Shown in pieces: positions 5,486 to 21,021 of a DNA stretch of 54,516 bases. Both the position numbers and the translations under genes were made by a program. Each line of letters begins with the position of its first letter. Positions within the stretch are counted from its first letter, which is position 1. A model generated the notes under the pieces. It ran no database searches, was not told the origin of the DNA, and was given only the letters and a program-made list of their open reading frames with translations. Source of the DNA: Candidatus Pacearchaeota archaeon (GTDB lineage: Archaea; Nanobdellota; Nanobdellia; Pacearchaeales; GW2011-AR1); assembly GCA_018303945.1 (NCBI GenBank), contig JAGVXD010000005.1, positions 1 through 54,516 of the forward strand, given 5' to 3'.

Positions 5486-6259
5486 ATGGCTAATTATGAC
5501 ATTATTGGAAATATAGTTGTTGTCAAATTTAAACGTAGCGATTCAAAATATAAGAAGAATAAATGGGCGCGGGATTTTTTGAGAGAACATAAGAATGTCA
5601 CAAGCGTTTTAGAGAAAACTGAAAGGTTCAAGGGGAGATTGCGTGTCCAAAAAACTCGTTTCTTAGCTGGTGCAAATACTAAAGAGTCTCTTTATCGAGA
5701 GAATGGGTGTTACTTTAGGTTTAACGTGGATACTTGTTATTTTTCACCAAGGCTTGCTTCCGAAAGGCAGGATATTGCAAAGAAAGTAAAAAAAGGCGAA
5801 GACGTGCTGGTTTTGTTCGGCGGAGTTGCGCCATTTGCTATTGTAATAGCTAAAAATAGCAAGGCGGCAATGGTTACTTCAATTGAATTAAGCAAGGCCT
5901 GCAGCAGATATGCTGTGGAAAATGTAAAAAGGAATAAGTTGGACGGAAAAGTAGAGATAGTTCAGGGAGATGTTAGAAGAAAACTCCCTCCGATGAAGAA
6001 AAAGTTTGACAGGATTATTATGGCACGACCAAATCTTAAAGATTCTTTTTTAGACGTTACTTTTTCACGTATTAAAAATAAGGGCATTATCCACTATTAC
6101 GGCTTTTGTTATGAGAGTGAGTTAGAGAATATGAAATCTATGATTATTACTGAAGCAAAAGAAGTAAAAAGAAAAGTTAAATTAATAAATGTTAAGAAAG
6201 CCGGGGATATAGGGACAAGAAGATATCGTTATAGAATTGACATTCTGATTTTAAGATAG
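5486..6259 (+). CDS. Trm5/TYW2 (Met10+) family tRNA methyltransferase
   Basis: YDIIGNI, ENGCYF, YFSPRLASER, FGGVAPF SAM motif, FDRIIM, IIHYY. Confidence 0.88.
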   Translation: MANYDIIGNIVVVKFKRSDSKYKKNKWARDFLREHKNVTSVLEKTERFKGRLRVQKTRFLAGANTKESLYRENGCYFRFNVDTCYFSPRLASERQDIAKKVKKGEDVLVLFGGVAPFAIVIAKNSKAAMVTSIELSKACSRYAVENVKRNKLDGKVEIVQGDVRRKLPPMKKKFDRIIMARPNLKDSFLDVTFSRIKNKGIIHYYGFCYESELENMKSMIITEAKEVKRKVKLINVKKAGDIGTRRYRYRIDILILR

Positions 6260-6277
6260 AAATTAAAATGTCTGAAA

Positions 6278-6413
6278 ATAAAAAATCCCATCGTTCGCTT
6301 CTCTCATGTCAAAAACATAGTTCTTGAGCACACTCGAGAATCTAGAATGACCTAAAAGATTCTCTATGCTTCGCAGCAAGTTAAGAAGCATAAGACCCAT
6401 TTGGAGCAATTAA
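6278..6413. repeat. 136-bp structured dispersed repeat, copy 1
   Basis: identical to 12703-12838 except one base; several internal hairpins. Confidence 0.95.
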
Positions 6414-6428
6414 TTTCTATCACTATAA

Positions 6429-7736
6429 TTAAATTTTTATTTCTGCTTTTATAGAAATAGGAGCTTCACCGCCGTGCCAGGTGAATCTAGGGCGTATTCT
6501 CATAGGATAAATGCGTTCAGAGTTGTCGTCTAGAATTATTGCTGATCCTTTTAGGGTGGGCAAGTCATCCATTTGCTGTTTAATGCTTTCAAGAAGATAT
6601 GTCTGCATTATTTCGTTCAGAGCTTCCACATCAGGTTTTGAAGTTACCCTATGTGATATGATAATATCTGACTGGCTCATTACATCCCGATGTATTTGTC
6701 CTGGCTGCTGTGTCGCAAGCACGAGAGATATTCCCGGCTGCCTTCCTTCGCGCAAAAGCTGCATCAATGCGTCGCTTGCAGGCGTTTTTGTATTCTTTGG
6801 GAGAAACTCATGTGCTTCATCTATAAAAATCCAGGCCAGAGGTTCTTTTCTTCTTCCTGCATAAGATAAATATTCCTGTCCATGATGAATTGCTTCCATT
6901 TCCTCCTGCTTGCGGGCATCCATGCGGTTTGCAAATATCTTTCTAGATAGCAGGCTTATGACAAGAGCACGTATGTTGAATGCGCTACTTGAGCTATATA
7001 TGGATATGTCCAGAACTGTCGTTGTACCTCCCGTTAGAAGCTCACTTACTTCTGTTCCTTCTCTAGTGTTTGAGAATATACCCCAAGTAGATGCTGCACT
7101 GAAAAGACCATAAACTATTTCTTTTGCCAAATCTGATGCTTTAGAATCATTGATTATAGAGTTTTCAATGTCTTTAATTGTGTAGCTCCCTTTTTCCTGC
7201 AATGCAGTTATTGTTCTCTCTATCAATACTCCTGGTAGGCTGGTAAATTCCAAGTTGAAAAGAGTTATCCAGTCTTCTGCCTGCAGTTCTGATACTTTAA
7301 GAGCAAAAGTCTTATCAAAAGGAATCATCTTTTTTTGATATTCATCTATTTTACCAAACGGTACAAATACTTTTACCGGGAGAAGTTTTGTTTCCAGTTC
7401 CCATGATGAAAGGAGAGCTTTGTCTTTTTCATTGCGGTATTTCATTGTCCAGAATATCCCCATTGTATCAAAAATTAACGAGGCGATATTTTTTGCATTG
7501 TCAGACGGCAGATTGGCAAGCTCTTCTGCAATTACTCCGGCTGAATATGACTTGCCGCTTCCCCTTTTGCCAGCTATCAAGACTACATGGCTTCTTGCTA
7601 TATCCATCCAGAGCTTGTTTGACAATGAAGTATAAGTTCCCATTTTGACATATCCCTTTCCAAGATAGATAAGCCCACGATTACCAAATTTTTCTTTGTC
7701 AGTCGCGTCCCGACCGATTACGATGTCATATGACAT
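6429..7736 (-). CDS. HerA/DUF87-like P-loop ATPase
   Basis: GKRGSGKS Walker A, IFIDEAH Walker B, REGR, LATQQP. Confidence 0.88.
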   Translation of the reverse strand: MSYDIVIGRDATDKEKFGNRGLIYLGKGYVKMGTYTSLSNKLWMDIARSHVVLIAGKRGSGKSYSAGVIAEELANLPSDNAKNIASLIFDTMGIFWTMKYRNEKDKALLSSWELETKLLPVKVFVPFGKIDEYQKKMIPFDKTFALKVSELQAEDWITLFNLEFTSLPGVLIERTITALQEKGSYTIKDIENSIINDSKASDLAKEIVYGLFSAASTWGIFSNTREGTEVSELLTGGTTTVLDISIYSSSSAFNIRALVISLLSRKIFANRMDARKQEEMEAIHHGQEYLSYAGRRKEPLAWIFIDEAHEFLPKNTKTPASDALMQLLREGRQPGISLVLATQQPGQIHRDVMSQSDIIISHRVTSKPDVEALNEIMQTYLLESIKQQMDDLPTLKGSAIILDDNSERIYPMRIRPRFTWHGGEAPISIKAEIKI

Positions 7737-7819
7737 ACTTTATGAAAATAGTCCAAGTTTATTAATGTTAGTTTTTAAAGTTTCCAAAGATTTTTAAAGG
7801 GGTTTATTCTTTGGGTTTC

Positions 7820-8773
7820 ATGGCAGAATCTGCAAAAGAGAAAAAAGATGTTATTGAGATACCCGTTGGCAGATATATAAAAGCCATAAGGTCAAATCCA
7901 TGGATTATATCAAGTGTAGTTTTGGCAGTTATTGTAATAGTTCTTGTAATAGCACTTTTCAGTGAAGAGAAATCTGTAACTGGAAATGTCATAAGCGAGA
8001 ATACGGCTGGAGAAAGTTTAATTTCTTTTATTAATTCACAGGGGCAGGGCAGTGCGACACTGGTTTCTGCAGTGCAGGAAGGCAGTCTGTATAAAGTTGT
8101 TGTTGATTATCAGGGACAAGAGATTCCAGTTTTTGTTTCTTTAGATGGAAAATATCTTATTACCGATCCAATTCCATTAAGCGCCGATGCAGGAGCTTTG
8201 ACAGGAAGCGATAGCGGGGCAACAGCACAGAGAGAACCTGTTGAGGTTGATATCGGAAATAGTCCAATAAAAGGAAGCAAGGATGCTCCTGTAACTATTG
8301 TTGAATTTTCAGATTATGAATGTCCTTTCTGCGGAAGATTTTATACACAATCATTCAAGCAAATTGATGAGAAATACATCAAGACTGGCAAGGTAAAACT
8401 TGTCTTTAAGGATTTTCCTCTTAGCTTCCATCCAAATGCACAGAAAGCTGCAGAAGCAGCTCGTTGCGTACGTGACCAAAAGAGCGACGCAGGTTATTTC
8501 AAGATGCATGACAAATTATTTGAGAATCAAGAGCAGTTAAGTATTGAAAATTACAAGAAATGGGCCAGAGAAATTGGGGTTAATGGAGCGGCATTTGATA
8601 CATGTTTAGATTCAGGCAAGCATGAGAAAGCAGTGCAGGATGAACTTGCTTATGGCCAACAGCTTGGTGTTTCTGGAACTCCGGCATTTTTCATCAATGG
8701 ATTGCTTATAGAGGGTGCGCAGCCATATACTGTTTTTGAACAGGCCATTGAGAATATATTACAAAGTTCTTAG
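7820..8773 (+). CDS. membrane-anchored DsbA/thioredoxin-fold oxidoreductase
   Basis: N-terminal TM, EFSDYECPFC, GVSGTPAFFING. Confidence 0.92.
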   Translation: MAESAKEKKDVIEIPVGRYIKAIRSNPWIISSVVLAVIVIVLVIALFSEEKSVTGNVISENTAGESLISFINSQGQGSATLVSAVQEGSLYKVVVDYQGQEIPVFVSLDGKYLITDPIPLSADAGALTGSDSGATAQREPVEVDIGNSPIKGSKDAPVTIVEFSDYECPFCGRFYTQSFKQIDEKYIKTGKVKLVFKDFPLSFHPNAQKAAEAARCVRDQKSDAGYFKMHDKLFENQEQLSIENYKKWAREIGVNGAAFDTCLDSGKHEKAVQDELAYGQQLGVSGTPAFFINGLLIEGAQPYTVFEQAIENILQSS

Positions 8774-8787
8774 TCTAGTAAGGTTAA

Positions 8788-9255
8788 TTAATCTTCAATA
8801 TAATAATCGCCATCATCCATCTTGTAAACAACTTCACCAAAGTATTCTTCTCCTTCTTTCCAAAGAGATGAGTTATATGCATTAATGAGAATGGCTCCAA
8901 GTTCAAAAGAAGCATTATAATTTGTTTCATTAGGGTATCTTGCTTGCAATACATAATTTCTACCAGCGTCTTTAGCTTGCTCAACAATACTATTTAATTT
9001 TTCATCACCTTTTATACTATCTAGGTCATTAGTTAAAGAAAGCTCTAATTCTGAAGGCGTACGAGTCATTTCACGAATTGCTGGCAATTCTTGCTCTATT
9101 TCTTCTTTTGAAGCGTCACAATAAAAGAAAGCATAAGCTTCTCCAATAGGTACAGGATTAGGACTTACTCTAATTTGATGTCCTTCTTTATCAACAAATT
9201 GTTGATTTTTTCCAATAGCGTATTCTCCTTTTATGATAATTTCTTTCTTTTTCAT
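8788..9255 (-). CDS. hypothetical protein
   Basis: 155-aa ORF with upstream TTTAAATA box. Confidence 0.6.
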   Translation of the reverse strand: MKKKEIIIKGEYAIGKNQQFVDKEGHQIRVSPNPVPIGEAYAFFYCDASKEEIEQELPAIREMTRTPSELELSLTNDLDSIKGDEKLNSIVEQAKDAGRNYVLQARYPNETNYNASFELGAILINAYNSSLWKEGEEYFGEVVYKMDDGDYYIED

Positions 9256-13722: not shown

Positions 13723-14268
13723 TTATTGTTTCCAATCAACAAGAGTATAACGTCCTACAAAATCATTAGATTCATCCCCATTTTCTGTTTCTTTTTCCTT
13801 TCGTACAGAAGGTTTAGTGAGGTGCATGGTTATCCAAAGTCCAGTTGAATTATCTGTAATAAATGTCCCATCAAGTTCTTTATCTAAACCAAATGCCTTG
13901 ACTAATTTGCCAGGCCCATTTGTGAGATTTTTCTCGTCTGAACTGCCCTTATGCTTCATCATTATTTCTATTCCTTCTAATGGAATAACTTGCCTTATCA
14001 AAACTTCATTGTAAATATCTTCTCTAAATGTAGAAATTGCAAGCATATAATTTCCTTGAGAGGGATACATATGTATTGCGCCTGGAGTGTAAAAAGCCCC
14101 CCTATTTCTATTATTAGGAACTGCATTTCTCATAGAATAAGCATCTACTTGAGAGATAATACCGCTAATCTTCTTGCCTTTGTAATTACGAACTAATAGC
14201 TTTCCAACTAAATCGTAGCCTACTTGTCTTGAATCAAGAGCAAAAAATGATTGAGGCAATGCTTTCAT
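13723..14268 (-). CDS. mpg: 3-methyladenine DNA glycosylase (MPG/AAG family), divergent
   Basis: FF...LVGKLLVR, I..VDAY (canonical ETEAY), VLIR, LTNGPGKL. Confidence 0.85.
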   Translation of the reverse strand: MKALPQSFFALDSRQVGYDLVGKLLVRNYKGKKISGIISQVDAYSMRNAVPNNRNRGAFYTPGAIHMYPSQGNYMLAISTFREDIYNEVLIRQVIPLEGIEIMMKHKGSSDEKNLTNGPGKLVKAFGLDKELDGTFITDNSTGLWITMHLTKPSVRKEKETENGDESNDFVGRYTLVDWKQ

Positions 14269-14332: not shown

Positions 14333-14359
14333 TAAAAATACACCTAAGGTGTATTTTTA
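14333..14359. promoter_or_regulatory. perfect palindrome, candidate operator
   Basis: TAAAAATACACCT-A-AGGTGTATTTTTA spanning the TATA box to the ATG of the AbrB-like gene. Confidence 0.7.
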
Positions 14360-14523
14360 TGGCTGAAAAGAAAAGTTATGTAATTACGAAAAAGATAGCG
14401 AAGCATGGGAAACAGCCCATAATTCTAGTGCCTAAAATATTAGAAGTAGAGCTTAAACCAGGCACTATTGTCAAATTGCACATAGAAGTTGTCAAGGAGG
14501 TTGAAAATGGTTCTGGAAAGTAA
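14359..14523 (+). CDS. small AbrB/SpoVT-like DNA-binding protein (54 aa, not in ORF track)
   Basis: MAEKKSYVITKKIAKHGKQPIILVPKILEVELKPGTIVKLHIEV: K-I-x-x-x-G...I-x-V-P-K...L-K-P-G swapped-hairpin pattern. Confidence 0.75.
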   Translation: MAEKKSYVITKKIAKHGKQPIILVPKILEVELKPGTIVKLHIEVVKEVENGSGK

Positions 14524-15310
14524 AATAAATATCGATGGAAACTCTAATTACCAGAAATTAGCGGCAAGACTGCAGGAAATAGCAAAAATGACTGAAAGCA
14601 TGACTTCTAAAGAGATTTCTGAAAGATGGGGAGAATCAAGTTTAGTATGGTTGCAAGGCGTTGACAATTGTATGGTCTATCTTAGAAAAGAAAAGAGAAT
14701 AGTAGAAAAAAAGAGAGAGAAAGTTCCACAAGAATACTACGAGCAAACTTCTGGCTTTGATTTTCCACAATTAAAAAGTTGGTATAATCCAAATGAAAAA
14801 TTAAAGCATAGACAGAGAGAACTCAAAAAGATAGTTTATACAGAAAGGATGCTTGAACTTATTGCTCAGAAATTTGATATAAATATAAAGCCTATTGCAA
14901 ATAGAGGGTCAGATGGCTTTGTTAAAACTTCAAAGGACTTGCTTAATTTATGTGATACTGACCCTAAAGCGAGATATATTATCCAGCTTTGCCAGGGAGA
15001 TGATGTGGATGTTGCAGACATTATAGCAGTTGTTTATGATGGAAAAATTGCAAGAGATGATGCAATTAAGCTCTTGCAAGAGCCATCTCTTAGAGATTAC
15101 TTGGGTGAATTTAGGAAACCAGTAGGAATTCCAGATATTGAAGAATATGCAAATGAGTTGTTGCCTCTTGATAAAAATGGAGTTGTTGCCTCTATAGTTT
15201 ACAGAAGACTTATAGAATGTAGAAGAAATAAGCTTGGGGCAAAGCCGAGTATTGAACAGCGTAAAGATTTCTTAGAAGAAGTACAGAGAAACTTAGAGAG
15301 GTTGATATGA
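14507..15310 (+). CDS. hypothetical protein, first large gene of the repeat/SNF2 operon
   Basis: GGAGG RBS before ATG 14507; overlaps both neighbours. Confidence 0.75.
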   Translation: MVLESKINIDGNSNYQKLAARLQEIAKMTESMTSKEISERWGESSLVWLQGVDNCMVYLRKEKRIVEKKREKVPQEYYEQTSGFDFPQLKSWYNPNEKLKHRQRELKKIVYTERMLELIAQKFDINIKPIANRGSDGFVKTSKDLLNLCDTDPKARYIIQLCQGDDVDVADIIAVVYDGKIARDDAIKLLQEPSLRDYLGEFRKPVGIPDIEEYANELLPLDKNGVVASIVYRRLIECRRNKLGAKPSIEQRKDFLEEVQRNLERLI

Positions 15311-16134
15311 AATCACAACTCTATCAGACACATGAAGGGAGATTGATCGCGTTCGCAGCCCTAAAAAATGAACTTTGCAGGAATCCTTCCGGCCGGGAAA
15401 TGATGGAAAGATATCCAAATATAGAAAAGCCGTATAATGGAAGATACCGTAATTACTGGCAGAAATGGGAATTTGACAAAGCGTTTGATGATTTAATGAC
15501 TAAATTGGAAATAGTTCCTACAGAAGAAGATATTAATATTTTTATTTCCGGTGCAGTATTTTATTTTAATGATTTATCAGGCAAGAGAGAAAATAGAGGA
15601 CATTATGATTTACTAGATTATCTAGCAGATAGAGGTCTTGGACCTAATAGGGATGAACGAGACAAATTGAGAGTAAGGTTGAAAGAAGAGCATAATAGAA
15701 ATAGGATGAATGAGATAAACGATATATTCTCTGAAATGGAGAGAAAATTGGGAAAACAACCATCTTCTGAAGAATTTGAGAAAGCTCACAAAAGAGAATA
15801 TGGCTTCATTTTATATTCATTAGGCAATTGGACGAATTATCTTGCAACTCTAGGGAGAAAAACCTTAAGGACATTCCGTTATTGGGATGTTAAAACCGTA
15901 GATAAGGCATATGATGCACTGGAAGAAGATCTGAGGAGAACACCTACTTTTACTGAGTTCAAAATAAAAAATCCCGGGGCAATATCAAGAATTACTTCAG
16001 GAAAATATGATTCTTCTATCAAATCATGGAGAGATTATTTAGTTTACAGAGGTAAAAATCCCATAGAAAAAAGACACTCTCTTAATTTACTGGAATCTAT
16101 ATTAGAAGACCCTGAAACTGGAGGTCTGCCATGA
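15307..16134 (+). CDS. repeat protein (HNH-associated-repeat-like LGxxP(T/S)xxEF units) with LLESILE tail
   Basis: up to four partial or complete repeats; ATGA coupling. Confidence 0.8.
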   Translation: MKSQLYQTHEGRLIAFAALKNELCRNPSGREMMERYPNIEKPYNGRYRNYWQKWEFDKAFDDLMTKLEIVPTEEDINIFISGAVFYFNDLSGKRENRGHYDLLDYLADRGLGPNRDERDKLRVRLKEEHNRNRMNEINDIFSEMERKLGKQPSSEEFEKAHKREYGFILYSLGNWTNYLATLGRKTLRTFRYWDVKTVDKAYDALEEDLRRTPTFTEFKIKNPGAISRITSGKYDSSIKSWRDYLVYRGKNPIEKRHSLNLLESILEDPETGGLP

Positions 16135-16556
16135 TAAAACGTGTTTATTATCAATATTGGAAAGATTTTGAATCTTGGGAAAGATTTGGCTATGATAATA
16201 ATTATGATGAAAGGAAGGCTACTAACCTAACTGATAGTGATGCAAAAGAAGAGAGAAGCTGGTATAGAAGAGGCAAATATATGGGGTGGCTGAAAGATTT
16301 TCCTTTTGCAAGCAGATCTCCTTATCTAAAACTTGATGGGTGGAAGAAGCATGGGTTAGAAAACGAGTTTGATAAGAGGGGCGGCAGAAGCCTTAGAAAG
16401 AGCGGTAACATAGATGAGAGATCATGGTATCAACGAGGCGAGTATAAAGATTGGCTGGATCAATTTCCTTTTAAAAGGAAGAGAAGAAAGAGTAGAATTC
16501 TTCATAATTCATTATTGCTATTGGAATCTCTTCTCGAAGAAGGAGACATAAAATGA
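16131..16556 (+). CDS. two-repeat protein (ERSWYxRGxYxxWLxxFPF) with LLESLLEEG tail
   Basis: internal duplication of about 55 aa; ATGA coupling. Confidence 0.8.
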   Translation: MIKRVYYQYWKDFESWERFGYDNNYDERKATNLTDSDAKEERSWYRRGKYMGWLKDFPFASRSPYLKLDGWKKHGLENEFDKRGGRSLRKSGNIDERSWYQRGEYKDWLDQFPFKRKRRKSRILHNSLLLLESLLEEGDIK

Positions 16557-17209
16557 GAAAAAGAAAGAATGTATTTTGGACTCCTAGTAAAATAGATGGG
16601 GCATTTAGTAGTCTAAGACATGAACTTGGTAGGGTTCCAACTAACGATGAATTTATAAATAAATATAGCGGCGCGATGAAATCAATAAGAAGGGGGATTT
16701 TTTCAGGTATTAACTCTTGGAATGATTACTTAATATCTAAGGGATATGACAAATGGAATATTGATGTTGAGAATGTTGATTCTCTTTATAGCGAATTGAA
16801 ACAAGAATTAGGCAGGATACCAAATGGAACTGAATTTTCTAAGAAAAGTTGCGGAGCATATGCTTTTATTGTAAGAAGAAAATATAGGCCTTCTATAAAA
16901 AATTACAATCAATTTGTTCAATTTAAGGAGGGCAAACCTGCTACTCCATTTAAATTATCCTGGAATCCTGAAAGAGTAAACGAAGTATTTTATGAACACA
17001 AGAGTCAATTGGAAAGAGTTCCAACATTTAGAGAATTTGCAAAAAAAAATAAAGGTGCTTTAAGGATGATACTTGAAGGAAGATATAACTTTTCTGTGAG
17101 AACTTGGAATGGTTTTTTAGAATCATTAGGAGAAAAAAATCCCAAAAAAGAAAAAGGCTTTCTTGGTGTTTTAGAAACAATTTTAGAAGGAGGAAATGAA
17201 AATGCCTAA
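16553..17209 (+). CDS. three-repeat protein (LGRxPTxxEF units) with VLETILEGG tail
   Basis: three repeats of about 60-70 aa. Confidence 0.85.
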   Translation: MRKRKNVFWTPSKIDGAFSSLRHELGRVPTNDEFINKYSGAMKSIRRGIFSGINSWNDYLISKGYDKWNIDVENVDSLYSELKQELGRIPNGTEFSKKSCGAYAFIVRRKYRPSIKNYNQFVQFKEGKPATPFKLSWNPERVNEVFYEHKSQLERVPTFREFAKKNKGALRMILEGRYNFSVRTWNGFLESLGEKNPKKEKGFLGVLETILEGGNENA

Positions 17210-17873
17210 AGTAAAAGCTAACAGGTATTGGAATAACCATAAGAATGTAGACTCGGCATTTGATAACCTTGAAAAAGAATTAGGCCATATTCCTACTTCA
17301 AGAGAGTTCAGAGATGTGAATGAATGTGCGTTTAAAGCAATTGCCAATGGAAGATATAATAGCGATATTAAGACATGGAATGGTTACTTAACATATAGAG
17401 ACAAAAAGGTAAATCAAGAAAGAGGAATCTGGACACCTAAAAAAATCGATGAAGCTTTTGATACATTGGAATCTCAGTTAAAAAAAACTCCTTCTCAAGA
17501 TGAATTTAAGAGAAAATATTTTGGAGCTTTTGATTCAATAGTCAGTGGGAGATATGCAAAAGAAGTGACCTCTTGGAATGCTTATCTGAAAAAGAGGGAT
17601 AAAGAAACAAATGTTGATTTGACAAATTGGTCTCCTAAAGCGATAGACGAGGCGTTTGATACATTGGAGCGTAAATTAGGTAAGACTCCAACCTCTGTAG
17701 AATTTCATAATTTGCATGGTGCTGCATTAAGAGCAATCAGCAAAGGAAGATATGACTCAAAGGTTCATTCATGGCCAGAATATCTCATTCATAGAGGAAA
17801 GAAACCTTATAGGACAAGAACTAATCCTATAAGAATTTTTGAAGACATCTTAGAAAATGGAGGCACACAATGA
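17196..17873 (+). CDS. three-repeat protein with IFEDILENGG tail
   Basis: three repeats W..IDxAFDxLExxLGxxPTxxEF...GRY...SWxxYL. Confidence 0.85.
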   Translation: MKMPKVKANRYWNNHKNVDSAFDNLEKELGHIPTSREFRDVNECAFKAIANGRYNSDIKTWNGYLTYRDKKVNQERGIWTPKKIDEAFDTLESQLKKTPSQDEFKRKYFGAFDSIVSGRYAKEVTSWNAYLKKRDKETNVDLTNWSPKAIDEAFDTLERKLGKTPTSVEFHNLHGAALRAISKGRYDSKVHSWPEYLIHRGKKPYRTRTNPIRIFEDILENGGTQ

Positions 17874-18547
17874 GTAGAAGACAAGAAAACTATTGGAGTA
17901 ATCCTTCTAATATTGATAAGGCATTCAGTCAGCTTTGCAAAAAAATAAAGAGAATTCCTACGGCAAGAGAATTCGCAAGTGAATACTGTGGAGCAATGGC
18001 TTCACTAGCAAAAGGAAGATATTATAAAATTATAACAACCTACAATCAATATTTGTTAAGTCATGGAAAAAATGTGACTAGAGACTCAAATAAATATAAT
18101 TCGCCTGCAAAAATTAATGGGGCGTTTGATGAACTGGAAAAGGAAATAGGTAAGGTGCCTACCGCTAGAGAAATTGAAGAAAGTTGTGGTGGATTATTAG
18201 TATCATTAAGAAAAGGAAGATATCATCCAGAAATTAAAACTTATAATGATTACTTAAAACATCGTGGAAAATTAGTGTTGCATGATATAGGTAGATGGTC
18301 TTCTCCTAATAAAATCGATGAAGCTTTTGACAGACTTGAAGAATCTCTTGGAAGAACGCCTAGAAGAAAAGATTTTGTAATAAAATACGCTGGAGCATTA
18401 TCTGCCATTGTTCAAGGCAGATATAATAAGAATATCCACTACTGGAATGAATATCTTATGTTTAGAAACAGAGTTATTAACAAAAAATCAGGTAAAGACA
18501 CGACATTAATTCTTGAATCTCTTCTCGAAGAAGGAGGCACACAATGA
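17870..18547 (+). CDS. three-repeat protein with ILESLLEEGG tail
   Basis: three repeats as above; ATGA coupling to the SNF2 gene. Confidence 0.85.
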   Translation: MSRRQENYWSNPSNIDKAFSQLCKKIKRIPTAREFASEYCGAMASLAKGRYYKIITTYNQYLLSHGKNVTRDSNKYNSPAKINGAFDELEKEIGKVPTAREIEESCGGLLVSLRKGRYHPEIKTYNDYLKHRGKLVLHDIGRWSSPNKIDEAFDRLEESLGRTPRRKDFVIKYAGALSAIVQGRYNKNIHYWNEYLMFRNRVINKKSGKDTTLILESLLEEGGTQ

Positions 18548-21021
18548 CTAAAGTAAATTCTGAACAGCAAAGAGAGATAAGATCGGCATATAGAGAAATA
18601 TATCAGGATTTTGCGGAAAAAACTGGAGAATTGTTCAGAATGTATGAGGGAAAAATACCTGGACTTGAAGAAAGGGTGAGAAATCCTGCTTACGATATAA
18701 ATGGAGATAATGGAGGTTCAGAATATCTGTATGATTTTCCTTCATTCTATCAGGTAGAAGGCGTACAGTTTCTTATGGATCAAAAGAGAGTTCTAATTGC
18801 AGATGAAATGGGTGGTGGGAAAACTGCACAAGCAATTGCCGGAAAGATAGCATTGGACAATAAGCTCGGAAGGAAAGTAAAAACACTTATTGTCTCTCCA
18901 AATAGACAAGTAAAGAGAATGTGGGCGGAAAAACTCAAAGAATATATTACTCCTGAACAATATGCAACTATCAGAATAGAGAATATAGAGAGTTACAAGA
19001 AAGCTAATATAGATGAAGCAGACGTTGTTCTTATAGATTATCATGTATTTTCTTTCTCTGATAATAAGTCGAATAATCTAAGTAGAAAAGAATTAAAGAG
19101 AAAATTGATGAATGCCGGCTTCAATTACTTTGTTCTAGATGAAGCCCATAATGTTAAGAATTTCTCATCAGCAAGCAGATTTAATCATGTAAATGACCTT
19201 GCTTCTCAATCAGAGTATCTCTGTTTGTTATCCGGAACTCCAATTCCAAATAGCATCCAAGATATATATGCTTTGATTGCACTTCTAAAGCCAGAACATA
19301 TTGATGAGAGCGGCAAGAAGGTTGGATATAAAAACGCTTCAGCAGTTGCGGCAGAACATTACAAAACTCCTTCTGTCGTCGGAGCAATTCTTAGGGCTTC
19401 AAGATTAGAAAGAAAGCTTGAAAATGTAGCTAATTTGCCTTCTAAAACGGAAGAGTGCGTACATATAGAAAGGCTAAGCGATGCCCAACAGGAATTATAC
19501 GATTCTATATATGAAGATGATTCACTTTCAGGTTTGCAGAAAATTCAGAAACTTAAGCAAGCATTGCTTAATCCAGCTATCATTGATAAGAATCTAACTT
19601 CTGTGCCGCAAGCAAAATATGAAAAATTAGATGAGATAGTAAGAAGAACTTTAAAGAAAGGAGAGAAGATTATTATTTATTCTCCTAACTTCAGAATAGG
19701 TGTTGTTGACACACTAAGAGAACGCTATGAAGAATTTGGAGCCGTGCATATGGATGGGAGCAATACTTCTTCTCGTTCTTTCGTTATTAAGAGATTTCAG
19801 AAAGATGCCAGTACTAAGATAATGATTATGAATAAAGTTGGAGGAGAAGGCATTCCACTTACTGCTGCGAACAATCTTGTATTTCTTGAAGACCCATATT
19901 CTCCTGGTGAAAGAAGGCAAGTAATTGGAAGAATTTGGCGTCCAGGACAGAAAAAACCCGTGACTATATTAACGTTGAACGTAGATTGCACAATTGATGA
20001 TGGCTTAAGGAAATTTCTTGAGCAGAAGAGAATTGCCATTGAATATATAGAAAAGGGGCTTCCTTTAACTTCAGAGCAGAGAAAATTACTAAGTGGAGAT
20101 AATGATAAAGCTCTTGCTCTATGGCTTAGAATTAATCAGAATTACTTATATACTCCTGCACAAATCACTGGATCATTAATTAGAAATATTAAAGAAAAGC
20201 CTGAAGAAAAGGTGGTTAAGATTTTTGAAGGAAGGTTTGGAAAACATCTTGCTGAATCTCTTACAAAGAGTTGGGGAGATTCTGTATTAAGCAATTGCGC
20301 AAATCTTTACACTACAATAATAAATGGAATAGAGAAGAAAGAAGGAAATTTAGAGAAGATTGTGGACATAGCTTCTGGATTTGGAGCTCTGTCGCATGCT
20401 TTACAAAGGAGAGGCATAGTTAATATAGATGCAGATAAGCATCACTTTAACTCCCCTTATGCTTCTAAAGAAAACATTAACTTGATAGGCAAAATGACAA
20501 AACTCCCTATTGAAGAAAATGGCACATTTAATTTAGCACTTTGTTCTATGGCTTTAGATATATTGCCAAATACTTCAGAAGAGCCTGGACGCGTGAAGGC
20601 AGTTGGAGAAGCAAATAGAGTTTTACAAAGAGGAGGGTATTATATGTTTGTTCTTTCTGCTCCAGCAGTTAAAAATGACGATAAAATGAGGGAAGGAATG
20701 AAGAAAATCGGGTTTGAGGTTTTGCCTGAACTTACCGGCTTTGTAAAGTCGAAAGACAGAAGAATAAAAACTAATCTGTATGTACTTACTGCCCAGAAAA
20801 CGTTTGATTTAGATAATTCACAAAATGTTGCTGATTTCAGAGAATACTTTGAGCTTAATTCACCGGCAGTTGCAAGAATATTGGGAACTGCGCAGAAACG
20901 CAGAGGCGACGCAGTTGAGTTTGAATTTGTAAGAGAAACTGAAATAGAGGATTTGCAAAAAGCAATCAGAAGATTTCAGGAGAGAAAAGGGAAATCTAAT
21001 TTTTCTTCTTCGCAGGTCTGA
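18544..21021 (+). CDS. SNF2-family helicase/ATPase fused to C-terminal class I SAM-dependent methyltransferase domain
   Basis: ADEMGGGKT, VLDEAH, LSGTPIPN, MDGS, GGEGIPLTAA, QVIGRIWRPGQ; C-terminal VDIASGFG, FNLALCSMALD, EANRVLQRGG. Confidence 0.9.
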   Translation: MTKVNSEQQREIRSAYREIYQDFAEKTGELFRMYEGKIPGLEERVRNPAYDINGDNGGSEYLYDFPSFYQVEGVQFLMDQKRVLIADEMGGGKTAQAIAGKIALDNKLGRKVKTLIVSPNRQVKRMWAEKLKEYITPEQYATIRIENIESYKKANIDEADVVLIDYHVFSFSDNKSNNLSRKELKRKLMNAGFNYFVLDEAHNVKNFSSASRFNHVNDLASQSEYLCLLSGTPIPNSIQDIYALIALLKPEHIDESGKKVGYKNASAVAAEHYKTPSVVGAILRASRLERKLENVANLPSKTEECVHIERLSDAQQELYDSIYEDDSLSGLQKIQKLKQALLNPAIIDKNLTSVPQAKYEKLDEIVRRTLKKGEKIIIYSPNFRIGVVDTLRERYEEFGAVHMDGSNTSSRSFVIKRFQKDASTKIMIMNKVGGEGIPLTAANNLVFLEDPYSPGERRQVIGRIWRPGQKKPVTILTLNVDCTIDDGLRKFLEQKRIAIEYIEKGLPLTSEQRKLLSGDNDKALALWLRINQNYLYTPAQITGSLIRNIKEKPEEKVVKIFEGRFGKHLAESLTKSWGDSVLSNCANLYTTIINGIEKKEGNLEKIVDIASGFGALSHALQRRGIVNIDADKHHFNSPYASKENINLIGKMTKLPIEENGTFNLALCSMALDILPNTSEEPGRVKAVGEANRVLQRGGYYMFVLSAPAVKNDDKMREGMKKIGFEVLPELTGFVKSKDRRIKTNLYVLTAQKTFDLDNSQNVADFREYFELNSPAVARILGTAQKRRGDAVEFEFVRETEIEDLQKAIRRFQERKGKSNFSSSQV

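Follow-up and report, generated by a model that had tools for sequence, protein, structure and literature searches.

A shared C-terminal tail as a candidate docking peptide for the repeat arrays of an SNF2-methyltransferase operon in a Pacearchaeota archaeon

In the genome of the groundwater archaeon Candidatus Pacearchaeota archaeon (assembly GCA_018303945.1, 0.8 Mb in 22 contigs), five consecutive repeat proteins end in the same short acidic tail, directly upstream of a gene that fuses an SNF2 ATPase to a methyltransferase. They lie in a stretch of 54,516 nucleotides (nt) (contig JAGVXD010000005.1, positions 1 to 54,516; hereafter the window). Judging from sequence comparisons, we consider it probable, with reasonable rather than high confidence, that the tail docks interchangeable arrays onto the SNF2-methyltransferase machine, probably via a protein of 267 amino acids (aa) encoded in the same operon, the candidate hub.

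The operon comprises eight overlapping genes on the plus strand (14359 to 21021). In order, these encode a 54-aa protein, the 267-aa protein, repeat proteins of 275, 141, 218, 225 and 225 aa, and the 825-aa SNF2-methyltransferase. The gene for a methylpurine-DNA glycosylase (MPG) diverges from it out of a common intergenic region. Below, X denotes a connector domain of about 130 aa and N135 the N-terminal 135 aa of the 267-aa protein.

13723..14268, minus strand: methylpurine-DNA glycosylase of the MPG/AAG family (PF02245, E 3.6e-25)
14359..14523, plus strand: small basic 54-aa protein that opens the operon (isoelectric point 9.7)
14507..15310, plus strand: 267-aa candidate hub (N135 at 14507-14911, connector X at 14912-15307)
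15307..16134, plus strand: 275-aa HNH_repeat-like array of four units with tail (motif core 16087-16107)
16131..16556, plus strand: 141-aa W-rich array of two units with tail (motif core 16518-16538)
16553..17209, plus strand: 218-aa HNH_repeat array of three units with tail (motif core 17168-17188)
17196..17873, plus strand: 225-aa HNH_repeat array of three units with tail (motif core 17835-17855; 223 aa if the ATG at 17202 is used)
17870..18547, plus strand: second 225-aa HNH_repeat array of three units with tail (motif core 18509-18529)
18544..21021, plus strand: 825-aa fusion of an SNF2 ATPase and a class I S-adenosylmethionine methyltransferase (acidic N-extension 18544-18747)

Five consecutive repeat proteins share an acidic tail

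A first reading of the window from its letters alone (the initial annotation) had quoted five similar C-termini. They are real in the translations of the open reading frames (ORFs), and each continues for 2-4 residues past the quoted end because each gene overlaps the start of the next. The 275-aa protein ends in ...NLLESILEDPETGGLP, the 141-aa protein in ...LLLESLLEEGDIK, the 218-aa protein in ...GVLETILEGGNENA, and the first and second 225-aa proteins in ...RIFEDILENGGTQ and ...LILESLLEEGGTQ, respectively. The tail core consists of seven residues, [LIV][LF]-E-x-[IL]-L-E, followed by an acidic residue or glycine and preceded by a linker of 10-15 residues rich in K, R and P. As had been claimed, the 141-aa protein has another repeat type than its neighbors, without a Pfam family, and carries the same tail. 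The five genes (15307-18547) are translationally coupled. ATGA overlaps lie at 16131, 16553, 17870 and 18544; the remaining start could be the ATG at either 17196 or 17202, the second of which is where the database variant P0002 begins.

The motif is concentrated at these C-termini. In the whole assembly (1,208 six-frame ORFs of at least 80 aa, 274,172 aa; raw ORFs rather than curated genes) the loose form [LIVF]Ex[ILV]LE occurs 14 times, and five of its six occurrences within the last 25 residues belong to the operon genes. In 3,000 distinct ORFs of fetched loci (643,939 aa), the strict form [LIVF][LF]Ex[ILV]LE occurs ten times, eight of them within the last 25 residues: five in the window, two in locus L027 and one in locus L107. 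These three are the loci for which an N135-X hub is known together with its gene context. A chance origin of the shared tail is excluded.

The tail is retained in homologous loci

To identify related loci, an alignment of four SNF2-methyltransferases was run against genomes, one for each species. It matched 307 stretches, 194 of them from relatives, and the analysis retained the 80 best. Twenty archaeal loci, the window included, had a match reaching the methyltransferase part and were examined; L028 (which ends inside the enzyme), L034 (on the same cut contig as L023) and bacterial loci matching the SNF2 core only were left out, and six loci of Candidate Phyla Radiation (CPR) bacteria were looked at separately.

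Conservation in homologous loci was the point on which the initial annotation had made the tail's role depend, and the tail is kept in the two closest loci, both with a hub homologue, on arrays that cannot be aligned with those of the window or are of another type. The closest locus among the best 80, L027, has an SNF2-methyltransferase 61% identical over residues 1-819 and a 272-aa homologue of the 267-aa protein (48% identical), flanked by two repeat proteins that end in ISLLESLLED... and ISLLESLLEEEGEGIT. One of these arrays consists of five units of about 70 aa ('DLIHYVRSN') and the other is mixed, both without a Pfam match; the 376-aa repeat protein of this locus probably runs off the contig start. 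L107, a single locus of 1,956 nt from a metagenome scan with the 267-aa family, encodes an MPG (minus strand), a 52-aa protein, a 266-aa protein 59-60% identical to the 267-aa protein, and a 212-aa HNH_repeat array ending in SIGLLEALLEEDIP. The tail is thus not tied to one kind of array: at least three unrelated kinds carry it, built of PF18780 units, of W-rich units and, in L027, of the 70-aa units. Where the motif is kept, at 47-61% identity of the core genes, the adjacent linkers are not conserved. A back-translated tail pattern, run against the genomes of L027 and L029, recovered the two known tails, one internal match in a membrane protein and otherwise control-level matches only.

Selection acts on the protein

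Because the tails all lie directly upstream of the ribosome-binding site and overlapping start of the next gene, the conserved stretch could be a nucleotide element (for translational coupling, ribosome-binding-site context or recombination homology) with the peptide as a by-product. CTTCTTGAA-like words recur in L027, L107 and G050, and chimeric array variants exist. We nevertheless regard this explanation as highly improbable. Across the eight tails of the three loci, the two invariant Leu positions are coded by five and four Leu codon types, the motif-to-stop distance ranges from 11 to 19 codons, and the spacing to the next start varies by eight codons; S, T, D and A all occur at the x position. 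The five junction RNAs do not fold beyond dinucleotide shuffles (z +0.05 to +1.0), and the chimeric junction falls inside repeat units rather than in the tails. The same folding result led us to reject a hairpin in the junction RNA.

The initial annotation had attributed the terminal GG to the ribosome-binding site (GGAGG or AAGGAG) of the next gene, which overlaps the tail codons, and the homologues bear this out, since GG is lost where the site is coded differently. It is absent from the 141-aa, L107 and L027 tails: the L107 tail ends in EEDIP, its ribosome-binding site being encoded by GAGGAGGA, and the L027 tails end in EEEGEGIT or DNEDKIRGEKHG. A ubiquitin-like or double-glycine processing signal was rejected, as there is no conserved GG at a fixed position. 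Taken together, the varying Leu codons, the non-conservation of GG and the lack of predicted RNA structure indicate that selection acts on the protein, as had been proposed.

The further statement that the five tails use varied codons holds for three of them, which differ, and fails for the 141-aa and second 225-aa tails, which have 22 identical bases in common. Part of the tail similarity is therefore due to recent copying, a first point that counts against a docking function. The last 15 bases are also identical in two tails, and the five genes include four paralogues of the HNH_repeat array type. Tails inherited or copied among paralogues and without a function of their own would nonetheless be hard to reconcile with a motif kept at the above core-gene identities, on other array types and next to unconserved linkers; of the explanations considered here, we find this one the least probable.

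Arrays are fused to a connector domain in relatives

Connector X comprises residues 136-267 of the 267-aa protein (132 residues). In L029 (Aenigmatarchaeota), two repeat-array proteins encoded beside the SNF2-methyltransferase end in a domain with 48-52% identity to X. The signature of X, GDDxDVADIIAVVYDG...LRDYLG...LDKN...LGxKPxxEQ, is usually found C-terminal to repeat arrays, and an alignment of five sequences has 39 invariant columns. An exhaustive search of cluster representatives gave 57 relatives, 56 of which contain X according to a local hidden Markov model (HMM). In 35 of the 56, X is C-terminal behind at least 150 residues. Five have 100-149 residues upstream, and four of these (the window protein, P0005, P0007 and P0012) align to N135, while the fifth (P0022) carries a short HNH_repeat array. 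X stands alone or nearly so in nine representatives and elsewhere in the chain in seven. Pfam detected HNH_repeat in the sampled array-X representatives P0006 and P0015 and helix-turn-helix (HTH) units in P0017; P0009 has 'SMSDDELKQHY' repeats by sequence inspection. In P0014 (1,006 aa; 37% identity with the window enzyme across residues 9-753), a single chain consists of an HNH_repeat unit, X, the N-extension, SNF2 and the methyltransferase.

In the window the arrays stand alone, whereas those of relatives are fused to X. The tail motif ends none of the X-bearing representatives, and tail and X are mutually exclusive on arrays. The idea that different arrays plug into a common partner, put forward in the initial annotation, gains support from the array-X and array-X-SNF2-methyltransferase fusions; these leave undecided which of the two proposed partners, the 267-aa protein or the enzyme, receives the tail.

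Comparable regions occur more widely. Two connector classes, A and B, form C-terminal regions of about 150 residues in partner proteins elsewhere and are homologous to each other (hhalign 98%, E 3.6e-14). Of the 20 archaeal loci, 19 encode a protein with a connector; the remaining one is a contig of 2,959 nt. The general design would thus be array, connector, enzyme, from which the window departs by a third tier: the connector is split onto the 267-aa protein and the arrays retain only a motif of eight residues. In the window, L027 and L107 alike, the arrays have shed the connector, and the tail would be a substitute for the covalent link.

A proposed docking path through the 267-aa protein

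We propose that the tail is a short linear docking peptide, in which a basic or proline-rich linker is followed by a two-turn amphipathic acidic helix (phi-L-E-x-phi-L-E-acidic, with phi hydrophobic), and that it attaches swappable, basic, probably nucleic-acid-binding arrays non-covalently to the SNF2-methyltransferase. Since arrays are covalently fused to X elsewhere and X is separate here, the likeliest path would run from the array tail to the N-terminal region of the 267-aa hub, then through X to the acidic N-extension of the enzyme. The charges fit this order: the tails are acidic, N135 has a net charge of +6 and the N-extension (residues 1-68) one of -4. This acidic N-extension was observed only in X-type loci, its residues 1-13 being matched only by L027, L028, L029 and P0014. 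Five alternative readers would then compete for, or share, one motor.

G050, a more distant locus, may offer a parallel case. Its five detached arrays fall into two types, one being a 156-aa HNH_repeat-like protein and the other comprising four proteins with multiple HTH repeats. They share a tail of their own, a basic linker followed by GLLGKLYMEGD or GLLKRIYLGED, the tail sequence being lineage-specific, and the connector is fused to the SNF2-methyltransferase, behind a non-array region of about 150 residues.

Several observations weigh against this proposal, in addition to the copying noted above. The exact tail occurs in three loci only. N135 has no detectable homology with the N-terminal region of G050 (E 0.56), and the parallel is therefore architectural only. 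Homology of X with class A is suggestive only (65%, E 6e-5). Part of the 267-aa protein (residues ~89-135) aligns to a repeat unit of P0009, so that it may be one more minimal adaptor and not a receptor. X ends in a helix, FLEEVQRNLE, that is similar to the tail, a likeness equally compatible with docking directly on the enzyme.

In that alternative, the main one, the tail would dock on the SNF2-methyltransferase itself, for example at the site of the X C-terminal helix, and the 267-aa protein, which ends in the tail-like FLEEVQRNLERLI, would be a competing adaptor. The tail-like X helix of P0014 lies about ten residues before the N-extension of the enzyme. Loci of classes A and B lack a separate hub, and their connectors must contact the enzyme; N135, for its part, partly resembles a degenerate array unit. 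Direct docking would, however, leave unexplained why detached tailed arrays and an N135-X protein occur together in all three loci with context, and the lineage-specific N-extension of the enzyme is acidic, as is the tail. We rate it as unlikely, and docking through the 267-aa hub remains the reading we prefer.

The hub form is rare. Among 401 genomes of the class, the N135-X hub was found only in G000 (plus a marginal match of 58 residues), and among 401 genomes of the order, a sample that overlaps the first, again only in G000. A genome of the same genus, G001, has another SNF2-methyltransferase subtype, 29% identical and in a different context. Both findings speak for an accessory, exchangeable module. 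Searches of viral contigs gave 14 generic SNF2 matches, none of which reached the methyltransferase part. A co-variation of accessory and enzyme C-termini was also considered and was discarded because it merely reflects two subfamilies.

Two further matches of the 267-aa protein were recorded. PADLOC gave a weak match to AbiEi (E 0.0022), and the segment encoded by 14507-14750 (profile positions 12-82) gave a non-significant match to the SANT-SLIDE DNA-binding domain of the SNF2 remodeler Chd1 (2xb0 and 3ted, E 0.13-0.14), which we treat as noise, curious as it is in a protein that accompanies an SNF2 enzyme. The ATG of this gene (14507) is preceded by GGAGG 8 nt upstream. The 54-aa protein at the start of the operon has no family match in Pfam and NCBIfam scans; by eye it presumably resembles small AbrB-like DNA-binding proteins, and a 52-aa homologue is encoded in the equivalent position of L107 (342-500).

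Repeat arrays

The 218-aa, first 225-aa and second 225-aa proteins match PF18780 (HNH_repeat) with 29.0, 35.5 and 32.2 bits, respectively (cut-off 26), and the 275-aa protein reaches 25.9 bits, 0.1 under the cut-off. A local HMM of one unit detected four, three, three and three units in the 275-, 218-, 225- and 225-aa genes and none elsewhere in the assembly. A six-frame search of the genome with PF18780 gave no match, because single units are too weak. Despite the family name, Pfam and NCBIfam scans of the operon proteins detected no HNH or other nuclease family. The W-rich repeat type of the 141-aa protein recurs in a 447-aa protein of L039 (E 1.3e-58) and, by local phmmer, in partner proteins of L036, L038 and L045 and in the array-X proteins P0023 and P0028. 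Apart from the query itself, homologue searches gave nothing for the 141-aa protein and two chimeric variants for the second 225-aa protein.

Four of the five window arrays have net charges of +8 to +14, and the Pfam scan gave weak HTH-like matches; on these grounds the arrays may bind DNA. For PF18780 arrays this function is putative, which is a further weakness of the docking proposal; in the available part of PMC8078820, the one paper found to name the family, it appears solely in a table that lists modelled repeats.

Autoinhibition by an acidic tail is known among other DNA-binding proteins. The tail could likewise fold back onto its own basic array as a nucleic-acid mimic. In favor of such an intramolecular autoinhibitor are the net charge of four of the five arrays, the three or four acidic residues of the tails and the flexible basic or proline-rich linker before each tail. 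We consider this improbable: the conserved positions are hydrophobic, with two invariant Leu, and not charge alone, the same tail is found on unrelated array folds, and X-fused arrays do without it.

The two chimeric variants, P0002 (356 aa) and P0003 (227 aa), combine units of the 218- and 225-aa genes and retain the tail. A junction from 16704-16720 (218-aa gene) to 18245 (last array gene) was seen in contigs of two runs from different studies. Assemblies break within the arrays, and the tails are without letter differences, although contigs may hide rare variants. Of 17 runs listed, none was an RNA data set holding the region. The chimeric genes reflect either recombination of arrays in the population or an assembly effect.

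The SNF2-methyltransferase and its neighbors

The 825-aa protein contains the SNF2 N-lobe (PF00176, 104.8 bits, E 5.9e-30, residues 69-344), the helicase C-lobe (PF00271, 48.7 bits, E 1e-12, residues 358-468) and a class I methyltransferase (PF08241, Methyltransf_11, 27.5 bits against a cut-off of 21.2, E 5e-6, residues 607-702). No DNA methyltransferase family of restriction-modification systems is among the 15 Pfam and 17 NCBIfam matches obtained, and no search aimed at the catalytic motif (D/N)PP(Y/F) was made. A PDB sequence search gave no solved relative of the methyltransferase part.

In 9 of the 20 archaeal loci, the interval from -5.5 to +7 kb around the SNF2-methyltransferase contains an MPG-like gene; several of the remaining loci are truncated contigs or members of the class-B subfamily. 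The MPG of the window has no tail. In a far-reaching reading, the tail-docked arrays might serve as swappable address labels of a programmable write-and-excise machine: they would steer the SNF2 motor and its non-canonical methyltransferase to chosen DNA sites, where an N-methylpurine is written, and the co-inherited MPG would excise it to leave abasic sites. Its purpose would be to ward off foreign DNA or to control the host-symbiont genome heritably, and recombination of array genes would renew the addresses. We hold this to be a speculative and rather unlikely scenario.

Other observations concern the surroundings of the enzyme. In G050, a 185-aa MPG-like protein ends in a basic linker and LKLLQKYMEA, like the array tails of that locus, and L026 has an MPG-like gene at 334-891. 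Class-B loci carry, instead of MPG, a conserved pair of genes of about 135 aa beside the SNF2-methyltransferase, which in L046 is fused as one gene of 273 aa:

L032, 6265-7082: class-B gene pair of about 135 aa
L036, 7668-8084: class-B gene pair of about 135 aa
L044, 10174-10994: class-B gene pair of about 135 aa
L046, 3658-4479: class-B gene pair of about 135 aa
L039, 175-576: class-B gene pair of about 135 aa

In L021 (the same-genus genome G001; 5859-9169, minus strand) and L041 (4445-9368, minus strand), two to three paralogues of 470-630 aa without a Pfam family are encoded on the opposite strand beside MPG and the SNF2-methyltransferase. These paralogues have an HTH-like segment at the C-terminus that they share with the N-terminus of a downstream 381-aa connector protein. 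In the CPR bacteria (L047, L052, L054, L058 and L064), the SNF2-methyltransferases measure 1,064-1,607 aa, and their N-terminal regions of 160-800 residues match no Pfam family and none of the three connector profiles.

Relation to known systems and implications

Type I restriction-modification systems combine the HsdR motor, the HsdM methyltransferase and the exchangeable HsdS specificity subunit. The operon resembles them in joining a motor ATPase and a methyltransferase that would be directed by separate, exchangeable and recombining modular readers. In contrast to Type I systems, the motor is of the SNF2 type, the methyltransferase is fused to it and is of the Methyltransf_11 type (small-molecule, RNA or protein), and the readers are tandem repeat arrays joined by a connector or, here, by a short tail. 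HsdS, HsdM and HsdR families have no match in the operon (Pfam, NCBIfam and PADLOC).

DISARM, Zorya (ZorD), Dpd (DpdE) and BREX (BrxH) likewise combine an SNF2-like ATPase with methylation and are patchily distributed among relatives. With DISARM and Zorya, the window enzyme has only generic matches in the SNF2 core, the PADLOC matches being confined to residues 65-501: the two DrmD models give 58.4 and 56.0 bits where 950 and 610 would be required, and ZorD gives 42 where the cut-off is 1500. No other Drm component (DrmA/B/C, DrmMI/MII) was detected in the operon, and its remaining proteins match no system-specific defense model beyond the weak AbiEi match.

Docking motifs that tether clients to one hub are known from clamp-binding (PIP-box) peptides, the acidic C-terminal tip of the bacterial single-stranded DNA-binding protein (SSB) and LxxLL boxes. 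The tail is similar in that a flexible linker carries a short C-terminal amphipathic or acidic peptide on otherwise unrelated proteins. It differs from PIP boxes, the SSB tip and LxxLL boxes in its pattern and in that its clients are all encoded in one operon beside the presumed hub.

Full-text literature searches, with subscription journals and supplements outside their scope, provisionally gave no published description of an SNF2-methyltransferase/tail system, and the sections available of PMC7641849 concern a different SNF2-nuclease system. The operon therefore apparently represents an undescribed modular SNF2-methyltransferase system.

The tail offers a handle on this SNF2-methyltransferase system, which is widespread in DPANN archaea and CPR bacteria and whose recurrent linkage to a methylpurine glycosylase hints at unusual base-modification chemistry. 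If the tail docks as proposed, it would be a compact natural case in which a covalent domain link is replaced by plug and socket, and one motor-enzyme could be shared by several interchangeable sequence readers. PF18780, W-rich and other arrays would then be candidate modular scaffolds for nucleic-acid recognition.

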